DNA of 64,000 nucleotides from Candidatus Binatia bacterium. Lineage in GTDB: Bacteria; Desulfobacterota; Binatia; UBA1149. Within the stretch, counting starts at the first letter, position 1. Every line of letters starts with the position of its first letter. Location of the stretch: NCBI GenBank assembly GCA_046754245.1, contig JBHHVL010000006.1, positions 13,859 to 77,858 on the forward strand, read 5' to 3'. The position numbers and the translations under genes were made by a program. The notes below the pieces were generated by a model. That model was not told the origin of the DNA. It did no database searches and saw only the letters and a list, made by a program, of their open reading frames with translations. This document shows positions 12,315 to 16,324 of the stretch, piece by piece.

Positions 12315-13086
12315 TGAGGAACCCAGGGCGCTGCTTTTCGATCTCTTCGGCACCCTGGTTTGTTTCGATCTTTCGCGTCTCCCTAGCGTCGAGGTCGACG
12401 GACGAACCCAGGTCGTCACGATACCGGGACTCTCGTCCCTACTGGACTCGCTGCGCCCGCCACTGGCCCTCTCCGAATTCCTCCACGGACTTGCCAAAGT
12501 CTCGGAAGACATACGGAACCAAGCCGCGGTCGATAACCGCGAAGTGAGTTCCGTACACCGTTTTAGGCGGACCCTGGTCGCGCTGGGAGTAGGGGGCGAT
12601 GTTGACGCGGCTGCACGGGAGTTCACCCGTCGACACATGCGAGGTTTGGAAACCGCCGTTTATTGCCCCCCTTTGCGCCGCGCGATGCTCGAGCGCGTAG
12701 CCAGTCGTTACCGCACCGGCCTGATCTCGAATTTTGACCACGCTCCGACCGCCCTTGCGATTCTCCATCGCTGGGGACTCGCCGATCTTCTCGAGGTGGT
12801 GCTCATCTCGGACGCGGTCGGCACGCGCAAGCCATCCAGACGGATCTTTCGGTTGGCATCGCAGAAGCTCGGCCTGAGGGCGCAGGACTGCCTCTACATC
12901 GGGGACTCGCTGGTGACAGACGTGGAGGGTGCGGTAGCCTCGGGCATGCGCGCGCTGTGGATCAGCGCCGACGCCACGCCTGGCCATTCCGCGCTAGGGG
13001 TGCTCGCCGACGCGGCAGAACTCGTCGCCTGGCTCAACGACCATTACGAGGCTGGCCTCACGGCGCCAAGCGGCGCACGACAGTAA
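12301..13086 (+). CDS. HAD-superfamily hydrolase, subfamily IA (2-haloacid dehalogenase-like)
   Basis: Motif I LLFDLFGTL (the DxYGT variant of haloacid dehalogenases), motif II ISNFD, motif III RKP, motif IV YIGDSLVTDVEGA. Start uncertain (TTG at 12301 or upstream within ORF 12214..). Confidence 0.65.
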   Translation: MPSTDEEPRALLFDLFGTLVCFDLSRLPSVEVDGRTQVVTIPGLSSLLDSLRPPLALSEFLHGLAKVSEDIRNQAAVDNREVSSVHRFRRTLVALGVGGDVDAAAREFTRRHMRGLETAVYCPPLRRAMLERVASRYRTGLISNFDHAPTALAILHRWGLADLLEVVLISDAVGTRKPSRRIFRLASQKLGLRAQDCLYIGDSLVTDVEGAVASGMRALWISADATPGHSALGVLADAAELVAWLNDHYEAGLTAPSGARQ

Positions 13087-13837
13087 CAAAGCCGGTGTGC
13101 CCCACCATGCGTTGGTCAGGCCTGACACTGGGCGGATCGACGTGCCAGCTACGTTCCAACAGCTCCCATGTTTGGGCAGAGCCCCAAAGCGGGTGAACTC
13201 GCAGCGCCTCGTGGAGGTCACGTATCTGCAGCACCGTGGGCAAGTAACAGATCAGGATTCCCCCGGGACGCAGCGCTTGGGCGATGCAACCGAGTAGCCG
13301 CTGGGGTTCGGGAATGTCGGTGATGACTCGGTCCACATCGCGCTCGTCGAAGCCATCGTCTGCGTTTCGAACCTTGACGGTCCAGTTCGGGGTTTCGCCC
13401 CAGAATCGCTCGACGTTGCTGCAGGCGTGCTGTGCGAGATCGGCGCGGGCTTCGTAGCTGACGAGAGAACCGCTCGGCCCGATAACCCGCAGCAAAGCCA
13501 TCGAGAGCGCGCCGGCGCCCACGCCCAGCTCCAGAAGCCGTTGACCCGACATTATATCGCCGCGGGTGAGAACCACGCCGATGTCTTTGGAGAACAGGGG
13601 TTCCGCCGAACGCGGAATCTGGGGCAGGAGCTCCGCCAGCGTGGGCCGGAAGACGCGGAAATACTCCTTTTTCGATCCGATCAGCGACCCCTCGGATCTT
13701 CCGATCAGGCTGTCGGCCTTGATCACGGATCCCCGAATGGTAATGCGATGGCCGGTCCTCAGGATCTTAATGTAACGCCGGCCCTGGCGATCGACCAATG
13801 CGATGGCTTCGCCGGCCCTTAGCACGCCCGATTCCAT
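13058..13837 (-). CDS. trmI: tRNA (adenine-N1)-methyltransferase TrmI (GCD14 family)
   Basis: SAM-binding LELGVGAGALS and the TrmI-like RTGHRITIRG region; the ATG at 13837 (MESGVLRAGEAIALVD) gives 260 aa. Confidence 0.8.
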   Translation of the reverse strand: MESGVLRAGEAIALVDRQGRRYIKILRTGHRITIRGSVIKADSLIGRSEGSLIGSKKEYFRVFRPTLAELLPQIPRSAEPLFSKDIGVVLTRGDIMSGQRLLELGVGAGALSMALLRVIGPSGSLVSYEARADLAQHACSNVERFWGETPNWTVKVRNADDGFDERDVDRVITDIPEPQRLLGCIAQALRPGGILICYLPTVLQIRDLHEALRVHPLWGSAQTWELLERSWHVDPPSVRPDQRMVGHTGFVTVVRRLAP

Positions 13838-13899
13838 GAAGAGCCCGAAGGTGATCGAATTGCTGGGGATTTGCAAAGCGGGCCCGCGTCGACGTAACT

Positions 13900-13928
13900 T
13901 GCAAGGCGACTCGACTACCCCTACAGTA
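13900..13928 (+). promoter_or_regulatory. predicted sigma70-type promoter (TTGCAA-17 nt-TACAGT)
   Basis: -35 TTGCAA at 13900-13905, exactly 17-nt spacer, -10 TACAGT at 13923-13928, in the 310-nt intergenic region upstream of the small Cys-rich ORFs. Pattern match only. Confidence 0.25.
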
Positions 13929-14151
13929 TGCGGTCTTGCGCGCCCGCCGGCGTGTAAGGGAAATACGATTCGGAGGGCTGATCGAAATGGCGGCGACAAG
14001 GGCGAGGACTCAGACCGGCGACGAACCGCGGTTTCCGGATTGTGGTGCTGAGGTTCGGGTAGCGCGTTGCGCTGGGGATGGAGTAACCGGTCTATTCTGG
14101 CTATGTGACAATACTTGTGGCTTTCGTCGCCGAACCCGACAATAGCGCCTG

Positions 14152-14568
14152 ATGGCGAGCGGCAGGAAAAAGGGGCCGTCCACCCGGGCCACGGGTTTCA
14201 GTCTCTTCGACGACCCCCCCGTCAGCCCGCAGATCGACGATGACCGCCCCCTGGGTGAAGCTGGCCGTCAGAAGATCAAGAAACAGTACGTCGAGTTGCT
14301 CGGGATCCGTAAGGAGAAACTCAAGGGCCGCATCCTCAACCGCGAACGAATCAACAAGGAAGTAGAAGGGATATACTTCATCTGCGTGTCCTGCGAGCAG
14401 ATTTGCCACAACCTCGATGAAGGGCTCGTCGAAGACGAGAACAACGAGAAGAATGTCTGTGTCGCCTGCGACAAAGCGGCCAAGTCTCCGACCAAGCAGC
14501 TCTCCAAGGCGGATGGCCGCAGCCACCGCAAGGCGTCGAAAAGCACCAACAAGAAGCGAAGCCGTTAG
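14152..14568 (+). CDS. hypothetical C4 zinc-ribbon protein with lysine-rich tail (possibly DksA/TraR-like zinc finger)
   Basis: 138-aa ORF. CxxC...CxxC arrangement (CVSCEQIC...21 aa...CVACDK) and basic tail KRSR; coding-like codon usage. No confident family assignment. Confidence 0.45.
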   Translation: MASGRKKGPSTRATGFSLFDDPPVSPQIDDDRPLGEAGRQKIKKQYVELLGIRKEKLKGRILNRERINKEVEGIYFICVSCEQICHNLDEGLVEDENNEKNVCVACDKAAKSPTKQLSKADGRSHRKASKSTNKKRSR

Positions 14569-15497
14569 GAGTTCTCAGCGGTAGACAGACATGGAACACC
14601 GTAGTGGCGGAGCAGCGCAAGCGCACGAACGAAATCTGACGGAACGGCCGCGCTGACGTCGGGCCCCCGGGGTAACACGACGCGCATGGCGTGGAGAAGC
14701 TGCCCGGATCGCGTATGCGCGGGGGCAGGGAGGTCTCCGTAAACCAAGTCGCCAATGATGGGGTAGCCTGACCAAGCCAGGTGGGCGCGTATCTGGTGCG
14801 GCGCGCCAGTCCGAATCAGAGCGGTTACCAAGGTCCACCCCCTGCCAGTCTCCAGAGGACGAATCGAAGTGTGAGCCGGTAGCCCTTGCTCGCCTGGCCG
14901 CGGCGGGCGAACGCCCGTGCGACGCCGCACTATCGGGGTATCGGACTCGAACCCCCGATCGAGTTCCCCGGCTACAATCGCGAGGTAGTGCTTGACGACC
15001 CGATGTTCGTGAAACGCTCGTCGAAGGTCAAGAAAGCGGCGCCGGCTACGGGCCACAACGAGAACGCCTGAAGTATCGAGGTCGAGGCGATGGACGATTC
15101 CGCCTTCTTCGGGTCGCGTGCCCGCCGCGAGCGTTTCCGGATAACGGGAAGCCGTAAATGCGGTAACGCTGGGTCTTCGCCGACCGCTGTGCGAATGAAG
15201 TCCGGCCGGCTTTTGGAGCACGGCGAGGTCCGTACGTTCCAGGATGACCTGCGCGGTCGCGAGTTCCGGTTGCCCGCTCGCGACCAACGAGCCCTCTGGC
15301 AGGGCTACGGTCACCATCGAACCAGCCCCTGGTACGAATGAACCAGGACGCCGCCGGCCGTCGACCAGAATCGCGCCCTCCGAAATGAGTTTCCGAGCGC
15401 AACGTCTTCCACAGGCCAGGTGGTCGGCCAAGAGCCGGTCGAGCCGGTGTCGGCCGCCGCTTACCCGGAACGACCCGCCCTGAACCAGCTCGGACAT
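14565..15497 (-). CDS. RluA-family 23S rRNA/tRNA pseudouridine synthase (RluD/RluC-like)
   Basis: 310 aa with an S4-like N-terminus and the catalytic motif HRLDLDTSGVLVVA. Confidence 0.85.
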   Translation of the reverse strand: MSELVQGGSFRVSGGRHRLDRLLADHLACGRRCARKLISEGAILVDGRRRPGSFVPGAGSMVTVALPEGSLVASGQPELATAQVILERTDLAVLQKPAGLHSHSGRRRPSVTAFTASRYPETLAAGTRPEEGGIVHRLDLDTSGVLVVARSRRRFLDLRRAFHEHRVVKHYLAIVAGELDRGFESDTPIVRRRTGVRPPRPGEQGLPAHTSIRPLETGRGWTLVTALIRTGAPHQIRAHLAWSGYPIIGDLVYGDLPAPAHTRSGQLLHAMRVVLPRGPDVSAAVPSDFVRALALLRHYGVPCLSTAENS

Positions 15498-15499
15498 CG

Positions 15500-16324
15500 T
15501 TACTCTTCGCCGACCTCGACTTCCAGGTTCTCGTAGACGATCTGGTAGATCCTGGATGAAATCAACAGGCTGTTGTGCCCGAGAGCTGAGACCGTGACGT
15601 TCATGGCCGGCGCGTAATAGGAACGGTCGACCGGGAAGACGATCGCGTCAAAGGTCGATCCGATCGAGGTCACCCGAACCCTGTCTGCAAGGGCGTCGTC
15701 TGCCTCCAGCCGCTGCAGGTAACGAGACCCCGGCCTGAGCCCGGTCATCCCCCGAGACCGGCTGAGCATCGCGAGGTTGGTTCCTTTGTGCGGAGACCCC
15801 AGCGTTACGACGTTCCCCAACCGCAGCAGGCTGTTCCTGTCCCGCGCGAGGTCACGGACGAGCACACCCCCCAGGCTGTGTGCGACGACGTCTACCCGAC
15901 CAGAGGGACTTTCGCGCGCCAACTCCTCAAGACATCGGGCAATCTGGACGGTCTTGTTTTCGTTTGATTCGGCCAGACTCGGATAGTTGATCGACCAAGT
16001 ACGGCGGCCGTCGCGCCGCAACCTAGCGGCGAGCAAGGCCATGCTCGCCCGGTTTTGGGCCCAACCGTGGACGAGAAGTACCGGCCTCGCCTTGGAATTG
16101 CCTCCACCCTTAGGTCCCGTCGAGAAGAGGCCAAATGGAAAGGCGCTGAGTCCAAGCAGGATGACCAGAAACTCCCCCACCCAGGCCATGAAAAGAACAA
16201 CGGCGGATTCCTCGCCTAGTCGGGTTTGCCGGCGCGAGCGCGAGTCATAGATGAAAATCAAGTAGGTCCCCCCGTGGAAAACGAGAGCCAAGAAGACGAT
16301 CAGCCACAAAACGTTGCTCAGCAT
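15500..16324 (-). CDS. alpha/beta hydrolase (lipase/esterase-like) with N-terminal TM anchor
   Basis: GxSxG nucleophile elbow AHSLGG, oxyanion-hole-like LVHGW, and an N-terminal hydrophobic helix. Confidence 0.75.
   Translation of the reverse strand: MLSNVLWLIVFLALVFHGGTYLIFIYDSRSRRQTRLGEESAVVLFMAWVGEFLVILLGLSAFPFGLFSTGPKGGGNSKARPVLLVHGWAQNRASMALLAARLRRDGRRTWSINYPSLAESNENKTVQIARCLEELARESPSGRVDVVAHSLGGVLVRDLARDRNSLLRLGNVVTLGSPHKGTNLAMLSRSRGMTGLRPGSRYLQRLEADDALADRVRVTSIGSTFDAIVFPVDRSYYAPAMNVTVSALGHNSLLISSRIYQIVYENLEVEVGEE

Follow-up and report, generated by a model that had tools for sequence, protein, structure and literature searches.

A two-gene locus encoding small cysteine-rich proteins in Binatia-like bacteria

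We analysed a stretch of 64,000 nucleotides (nt) of DNA, hereafter the window, from the genome of a Candidatus Binatia bacterium (assembly GCA_046754245.1, contig JBHHVL010000006.1, positions 13,859 to 77,858 of the forward strand). The subject of this work is a pair of short genes lying between trmI, which encodes a TrmI/GCD14-type tRNA methyltransferase, and a gene for an RluA/RluD-family pseudouridine synthase. The first open reading frame (ORF) of the pair, hereafter the small gene, encodes a protein of 52 amino acids (aa), and the second, hereafter the large gene, one of 138 aa. Judged from comparisons with related genomes, the pair is a two-gene operon that belongs to the conserved core genome of Binatia-like bacteria; that it forms an operon, and that both genes are real, we consider very probable. 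Binatia (Binatota) are an uncultured lineage known mainly from metagenomes.

Architecture and conservation of the gene pair

All sequence features described in the original prediction, which had been made from the window alone, were found where it had placed them. The features of the locus are given below, in window coordinates, with their isoelectric points (pI) where applicable; the two hexamers, the Shine-Dalgarno (SD)-like element and the spacer were read directly from the sequence.

13899-13904 (+): -35-like hexamer TTGCAA, matching 4 of the 6 positions of TTGACA
13922-13927 (+): -10-like hexamer TACAGT, 17 nt after the -35-like hexamer
13972-13977 (+): SD-like element GGAGGG, 9 nt before the small-gene ATG at 13987
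13987-14145 (+): small gene, encoding a 52-aa basic protein (pI 9.0) with four cysteines
14032-14118 (+): zinc-ribbon region of the small protein, residues 16-44
14146-14151 (+): intercistronic spacer of 6 nt, with no SD element for the large gene
14152-14568 (+): large gene, encoding a 138-aa basic protein (pI 9.5)
14197-14214 (+): FSLFDD motif of the large protein, residues 16-21, hydrophobic-acidic, preceded by a basic patch and followed by an acidic stretch
14248-14469 (+): conserved core of the large protein, residues 33-106 (74 residues)
14470-14565 (+): C-terminal tail of the large protein, residues 107-138, basic and of low complexity

A scan of a genome collection with the large protein as query recovered relatives in 277 species-level genomes, from which 80 loci were retained. 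The translated small ORF, searched against these loci with tblastn, matched immediately ahead of the large-gene homolog in 65 of them, and also in four Logan contigs identical to the window. Inspection of the tblastn misses revealed four more small-gene homologs, that of L034 with an internal stop, so that the small gene precedes and adjoins the large gene on the same strand in about 69 of the 80 loci, and the proposal that the two ORFs constitute one module is well founded. From these loci we extracted 63 clean ATG-started small ORFs of 41-59 aa, the window copy included; all measure 52-59 aa save those of L017 and L055, which are apparently truncated calls.

The gap between the two genes spans 6-36 nt in 62 of these 63 loci. 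The large gene has its own SD element in 45 of the 49 loci where the gap exceeds 12 nt, and in only 4 of the 14 where it is 12 nt or less; such a distribution of the SD element would be expected for translational coupling. The window belongs to the short-gap class: the large gene begins 6 nt after the small-gene stop and lacks an SD element, and translation of the small ORF is therefore probably needed for the large gene to be expressed. The large protein would thus be made in this genome by coupling to termination on the small gene. Read-through of the stop codon into a fusion protein was rejected as an alternative, since the gap lengths across loci are not multiples of three (30, 17 and 16 loci in the three frames). 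Three apparent fusion proteins were likewise discarded. P0288 and P0300 have a small-like start and a large-like end with a garbled stretch in between, and look like frameshifted read-throughs from noisy assemblies; P0296 passes exactly at '...LPICASCKKIC' from a sensor-type N-terminus, PAS-like by eye, into the final 55 large-family residues, and is probably an assembly chimera.

Regarding transcription, a sigma-70-type promoter situated about 60 nt ahead of the small gene is predicted to drive co-transcription of both genes, with a start expected near 13934. The TTGCAA-17-TACAGT arrangement begins 88 nt upstream of the small-gene ATG and matches 8 of 12 consensus positions, and a scan of positions 13000-15600 at a threshold of 9/12 found no promoter. 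Taken alone, the window site is no better than chance, and its support comes only from relatives. In these, TTGAC[AT]-17-TAnnnn lies upstream of the small gene, with TTGAC[AT] 45-190 nt before the ATG; it is visible in nearly every relative locus and reaches at least 9/12 in 43 of 62 relatives, as against 3.3% of shuffled sequences. On this comparative basis, the window site is best described as a weakened version of a promoter conserved in relatives. The sigma70-like promoter of the original prediction accordingly stands as to its hexamers, spacing and position.

Downstream of the promoter, a 4-mer SD core occupies the same position before the small ORF in 32 of the 63 loci, the window among them. 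The leader of the window is not unusually structured (fold z-score -0.61), and no Rfam covariance model matched positions 13700-14700 at an expectation value (E) of 1 or below; on both grounds we rejected a structured or riboswitch-like leader, and on the second a known structured RNA in place of the small ORF. As a separate observation, 11 of 58 loci carry a GC-rich hairpin followed by a T run just after the predicted transcription start (L031, L033, L040, L049, L054, L062, L069, L072, L076, L077 and L078), with weaker versions in L050, L074 and L083; the window has none. This hairpin lies 10-50 nt downstream of the -10 element and upstream of the small gene, its stem is often CCCGGCC...GGCCGGG with a variable loop, and the element looks like a leader attenuator or a very small sRNA, with no match in Rfam.

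The small gene family and its copy in the window

The small gene shows the substitution pattern of a coding sequence. The ratio of non-synonymous to synonymous substitution rates (dN/dS), calculated by the Nei-Gojobori method from pairs with dS < 2, is about 0.21, and identity at the three codon positions is 0.76/0.74/0.46, with variation concentrated at third positions. Conservation of the 52-codon ORF in relatives, on which the original prediction depended, is thereby borne out, and on sequence evidence the small gene is a real protein-coding family under purifying selection. The homologs of about 55 aa that a profile search recovered from databases number at least 520, and many carry the annotation 'hypothetical'.

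The family follows the consensus MAEKKAKTAEKxG....K..CPxCGAExRVVxFTGFGxxGFFWVCxKxCGYxxRTR, has a median pI of 9.6 and keeps its cysteine positions invariant or nearly so. AlphaFold models the small protein as a three-stranded ribbon, with a confidence (predicted local distance difference test, pLDDT) of 69.7 overall and 77-82 over residues 21-50. Automatic names from the Joint Genome Institute (JGI) within the family refer to the topoisomerase-1 zinc ribbon ('ssDNA-binding Zn-finger/Zn-ribbon topoisomerase 1'), S27AE, L37AE, DUF1610 and Elf1. Two deviations from the general pattern were recorded. In L050, L074 and L083 the last knuckle reads VCEKNA[SGA]H, and in L027 VCDKNLEH, so that the final cysteine is replaced and a histidine follows, which suggests a C3H variant of the ribbon. 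In L034, the small-gene homolog, some 250 nt ahead of the large gene, is interrupted after MAEKKAKTAEKNPGEVQHKHLCGECGGEAK by an in-frame stop or frameshift, being either a pseudogene or an assembly error.

Within this family, the window copy is the most divergent and fastest-evolving, as far as sequence comparison can tell. Phenylalanine replaces the first cysteine of the CPxC motif, and the N-terminal KKAKTAEK is degraded to TRARTQTG. The GC content by codon position is 0.64/0.64/0.49 in the small gene versus 0.55/0.40/0.79 in the large one; the small genes of relatives have a median GC content at third positions (GC3) of 0.76, and the GC3 difference between the two window genes (small minus large) falls in the lowest 2% of loci. 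Given how far the large-protein core has diverged, an identity of 0.60 to other members would be expected for the window protein; the observed value is 0.43, and none of the 59 taxa has a more negative residual. Together, these data indicate that the window copy is probably under relaxed constraint and may be decaying.

The small gene has also escaped annotation. Neither its 52-aa product nor the 69-aa extension from an upstream TTG start is present in a collection of 15 billion proteins, and the ORF was not called as a gene on the four Logan contigs with identical sequence. Of the pair, described as unannotated in the original prediction, this holds for the 52-aa ORF and not for the 138-aa one, which NCBI lists as 'hypothetical protein ACE5D3_02315 [Candidatus Binatia bacterium]'. 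Moreover, 11 of the 80 loci, L026 among them, have no small gene beside the large one, and their large proteins keep all conserved residues; in four of these (L007, L010, L011 and L012) only 110-145 nt separate the large gene from the upstream trmI, leaving no room for a small gene. The small gene thus looks dispensable in some lineages.

These features raise the possibility, which we regard as the less likely one, that in this genome the 52-codon ORF is a decaying remnant, non-functional or barely functional, and that the 138-aa protein acts alone, as it presumably does in the relatives without an adjacent partner gene. The lost cysteine, the degraded N-terminus, the low GC3, the excess divergence and the lack of any gene call are all what such a remnant would show. 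On the other side, the ORF is intact and keeps its SD element; G30, G32, G35, W38, C40, C44, G45 and the C-terminal R-T-R are all retained; the identical sequence recurs in four independent assemblies; and the probable requirement of small-ORF translation for large-gene expression would still apply.

The large protein and the placement of both families

The large protein has 912 database homologs, and its family has a typical length of about 130 aa and a median pI of 9.2; its gene, likewise under purifying selection, shows a dN/dS of 0.28 with codon-position identities of 0.74/0.76/0.51. As originally described, the 138-aa ORF is in the same frame as the small one and encodes the arrangement C78-x2-C81, 21 residues, C103-x2-C106, followed by a basic tail; to this we add a conserved C85-H86 absent from the earlier description. 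An exhaustive hidden Markov model (HMM) search of 1.84 billion representative proteins returned 71 clusters only, mostly fragments, and the large family is therefore restricted to the Binatia-like clade.

Three regions can be distinguished in the protein. The N-terminal residues 1-30 are predicted to be disordered (pLDDT 51-55) and contain the FSLFDD motif, in which F19 and D20 are invariant in one alignment of the family (A1) and conserved at 90% or more in another of 120 sequences (A3), with F16 nearly invariant in both; the motif is looser across all loci. The core (pLDDT 70-82) runs from a single 22-residue helix (residues 36-57) through a beta-hairpin (GRILNRERINK), the C78-x2-C81 knuckle, C85-H86 and an acidic loop to C103-x2-C106 at the start of a helix. 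It has no insertions or deletions in 77 of 81 loci, and its 32 invariant columns include G38, R39, K41, K43, Y46, R53 and I-L-N-R-E-R-I (61-67), together with C78, C81, (C85), H86, E94, D95, C103 and C106. The median pairwise identity of the core is 0.77. The Lon segment that matches best in these loci shares 60-73% identity with that of the window, and the core is therefore at least as conserved as this segment. The tail, also predicted to be disordered (pLDDT 47-55), varies in length across relatives (median 18 residues) and consists of 26% Ala, 22% Lys, 9.5% Ser and 9% Pro; in the window it is short and abounds in Ser, Lys and Arg. The longest large protein among the loci has 260 aa. In rare divergent homologs of the core (P0308, P0320 and locus L085, 1896-2852), with the pattern GRILNE..GGIYFVCxxCLxVxHDLCD...CxKC, the N-terminus is extended by 110-250 aa of unrelated sequence; the short contigs that carry them offer no informative neighbours.

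Both window proteins, together with 108 small-family and 120 large-family members, were scanned against family models. No curated threshold was reached in Pfam, NCBIfam, PHROG or PADLOC, all matches being sub-threshold ones to zinc knuckles. A profile search of PDB returned nothing for the large family and, for the small family, LysW at a best E of 0.046, over the knuckle only; no significant fold match was obtained for either protein, and no literature was found on either family. The statement that neither ORF belongs to a characterised family is in agreement with these results. In this regard, the small protein is a new family inside the very common class of zinc ribbons, and the large one an undescribed, clade-restricted family with no fold match. 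Both are present in databases mainly as 'hypothetical' proteins and do not make up a new category of system.

Regarding the small protein, the zinc-ribbon relationship appears as many sub-threshold matches, to ribbons of the topoisomerase-I, IS1595, TFIIB and ribosomal S27a/L37ae types, and as none at a curated threshold. PF01396 (threshold 32 bits) did not match the window protein and reached E < 0.1 in 16 of 108 members (best E 0.0037), with a best score of 15.1 bits among five members scored individually. PF21957, Zn_ribbon_16 (threshold 27 bits), reached E < 0.1 in 72 of 108 members (best 8e-05), the individually scored ones obtaining 12.5-15.5 bits over profile positions 9-34 of 65 only. 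In common with PF01396 (Zn_ribbon_Top1, COG0551), PF21957 and PF12760 (Zn_ribbon_IS1595), the small protein has CPxCG, about 20 residues and C-x3-C-G, with an aromatic and glycine-rich middle (G-F-G-x-x-G-F-F-W-V-C) and a predicted three-stranded ribbon. Unlike them, it carries a Lys-rich N-terminal MAEKKAKTAEK and a C-terminal RTR that are specific to the family. Topoisomerase-I-type ribbons have four cysteine ligands, in two knuckles on either side of a beta-hairpin; the small-family consensus has CPxC and C-x3-C, and the window copy has phenylalanine in place of the first cysteine. A further candidate role, as a Trm112-like partner of TrmI, was dropped: the 25 Pfam families listed for small-family members do not include Trm112p, and the sole structural match had an E of 9.3.

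The two cysteine pairs of the large protein had led to the suggestion of a DksA/TraR-like zinc finger, by which it would be a regulator acting in the secondary channel of RNA polymerase. DksA and TraR have an N-terminal coiled-coil hairpin followed by a CxxC-x17-CxxC finger. The likeness ends at a small bacterial protein with two CxxC pairs, which is the sole point in favour of such a regulator. Conversely, PF01258 gave no match at E < 1 for the window protein and none at E < 0.1 among the 120 members, the pairs are separated by 21 residues rather than 17, the model, with one helix, lacks a coiled-coil hairpin, and PDB yielded nothing. We consider this possibility effectively refuted.

A degenerate HNH (beta-beta-alpha-metal) nuclease finger would account for the order C78-x2-C81, H86-N87, N98/N101, C103-x2-C106 together with D89, E90, E94 and D95, which is similar to that of HNH motifs containing zinc, and three HNH families of PHROG matched one member each (E = 0.02-0.08). 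Nevertheless, no HNH model of Pfam or NCBIfam reached E < 0.1 in the 120 members, the four residues from CxxC to the histidine are too few for the usual first strand of the fold, and the predicted secondary structure is not beta-beta-alpha, all of which makes a nuclease finger very improbable. Treble-clef and cross-brace fingers (ZZ, FYVE, RING) differ from the large core as well, which has only six conserved Cys/His residues and no sequence-level match to them.

Finally, histone-H1-like tails of Lys, Ala and Pro occur in bacteria in Chlamydia Hc1 and Hc2 and in the C-terminal extension of mycobacterial HupB. The variable Ala/Lys/Pro tail of the large family is of this kind. In contrast to those proteins, it is attached to a 74-residue core, predicted to bind zinc, that has no homolog outside the family, and the window tail is rich in Ser, Lys and Arg instead of being made of Ala-Lys-Pro repeats. 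The HC2 model (PF07382) matched 1 of 120 members (E = 1.4e-4) through the low-complexity tail only, and not across the protein.

Proposed role of the pair and its surroundings

Taken together, the pair is best read as a co-transcribed, translationally coupled pair of nucleic-acid-binding housekeeping proteins, a reading to which we assign a probability of about 0.55; its part concerning a nucleic-acid-binding housekeeping role is, taken separately, evenly balanced. Each protein is predicted to bind zinc, the small one via a C4 ribbon and the large one via C78, C81, C103 and C106, which would leave C85-H86 available to form a second zinc site or an intermolecular one. The two products would act together on DNA or structured RNA, the H1-like tail and the basic hairpin and helix of the large protein making the nucleic-acid contacts and the small zinc ribbon serving as an accessory subunit. 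Their partner may be polyanionic and highly conserved, that is, DNA, rRNA or a nucleic-acid machine, because the large protein has the H1-like tail and the basic hairpin and helix, the small protein resembles single-strand-binding ribbons, and conservation is high.

Several points weigh against this reading. Nucleic-acid binding is proposed from composition and from zinc-ribbon resemblances that lie below every curated threshold. The window copy of the small protein, without a canonical zinc-binding cysteine, with low GC3 and evolving fastest, may be non-functional, and the large protein may be independent of the small one, as the 11 loci without a small gene indicate. Additionally, trmI and the rluD-like gene are on the opposite strand, so that their conserved proximity says little about function.

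A different role, rather unlikely in our estimation, would be that of a zinc-dependent protein-interaction module that does not bind nucleic acids, such as an adaptor, an anti-sigma-like factor or a chaperone cofactor. The hydrophobic-acidic N-terminal motif would then be a docking peptide, and C85-H86 would take part in the second or intermolecular zinc site. A short motif conserved within a disordered N-terminus, six conserved Cys/His residues against the four needed per zinc site, and weak matches of 14 of 120 large-family members to the ClpX zinc finger are consistent with such a module. However, every structural and HMM match is below significance, a polyanionic partner is suggested by the strongly basic pI and by the Lys/Ala/Pro tail, and no sigma-factor gene is found among the examined neighbours; lon, carried on the opposite strand, is near the pair in 22 of the 80 loci.

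A more specific version of the housekeeping proposal, which we put forward as a doubtful speculation, is that the pair serves a universal machine as a core subunit specific to Binatia: a ribosomal or ribosome-associated pair, or an accessory complex of the nucleoid or of RNA polymerase, with the 74-residue core as a new fold. The conservation of this core, equal to or above that of Lon, would then be due to contact with a highly conserved macromolecule. Should a ribosome- or nucleoid-associated role prove true, the pair would represent a new family of zinc-dependent nucleic-acid-binding proteins.

The genomic surroundings also bear on the nature of the pair. Of the 80 loci, 60 have a divergent trmI and 58 a convergent rluD-like gene, and the pair is kept between the two in about 60; neighbourhood conservation, proposed as a check on both ORFs, is in this respect confirmed. 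Further out, lon, a DUF4149 gene, a HAD hydrolase gene, an alpha/beta hydrolase gene and manC are often found. These neighbours lie on the other strand or further off, and therefore reflect a stable chromosomal neighbourhood and not a functional link. A toxin-antitoxin, defence or mobile two-gene cassette could be suspected from two small, tightly spaced and translationally coupled genes. Yet the pair holds a fixed chromosomal position across the clade, occurs in a single copy within the window with a GC content like that of its surroundings, and has no relatives on viral contigs; moreover, PADLOC reported no families for six representatives, no toxin or antitoxin domain was found with Pfam or NCBIfam, and PHROG matches were weak and inconsistent. 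We give a cassette practically no credence.

With relatives in 277 species-level genomes, the same position in most of those examined and a core whose conservation equals or exceeds that of Lon, the pair is a candidate lineage-defining housekeeping factor. It also illustrates how a conserved gene can escape gene callers at a length of about 55 codons, and the small gene is apparently being lost in one lineage with its translationally coupled partner retained.

Some details of the flanking genes remain to be given. The start of trmI is the ATG at 13837, given that in the resulting 259-aa form the TrmI_N domain of Pfam starts at residue 4; the position of this domain led us to reject a 313-aa TTG-start ORF (13058-13999, minus strand) as the real trmI. 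That longer form would cross the promoter and reach the start of the small ORF, and start calls for trmI differ between otherwise identical Logan contigs (255, 259 or 313 aa). Measured from ATG 13837, the gap between trmI and the large ORF that had been put at 310 nt does exist, with a length of 314 nt. At the other end, the convergent RluD-like gene occupies 14565-15497 on the minus strand, and its stop codon overlaps that of the 138-aa gene at 14565-14568. No plus-strand terminator was detected in 13000-15600, nor any terminator-like site between these two genes, and each of the convergent transcripts must therefore extend into the gene facing it. Lastly, the strand opposite the large gene contains an antisense ORF of 141 aa (14101-14526, minus strand); because the plus-strand frame shows a coding-type substitution pattern, it is probably a shadow ORF typical of GC-rich DNA.

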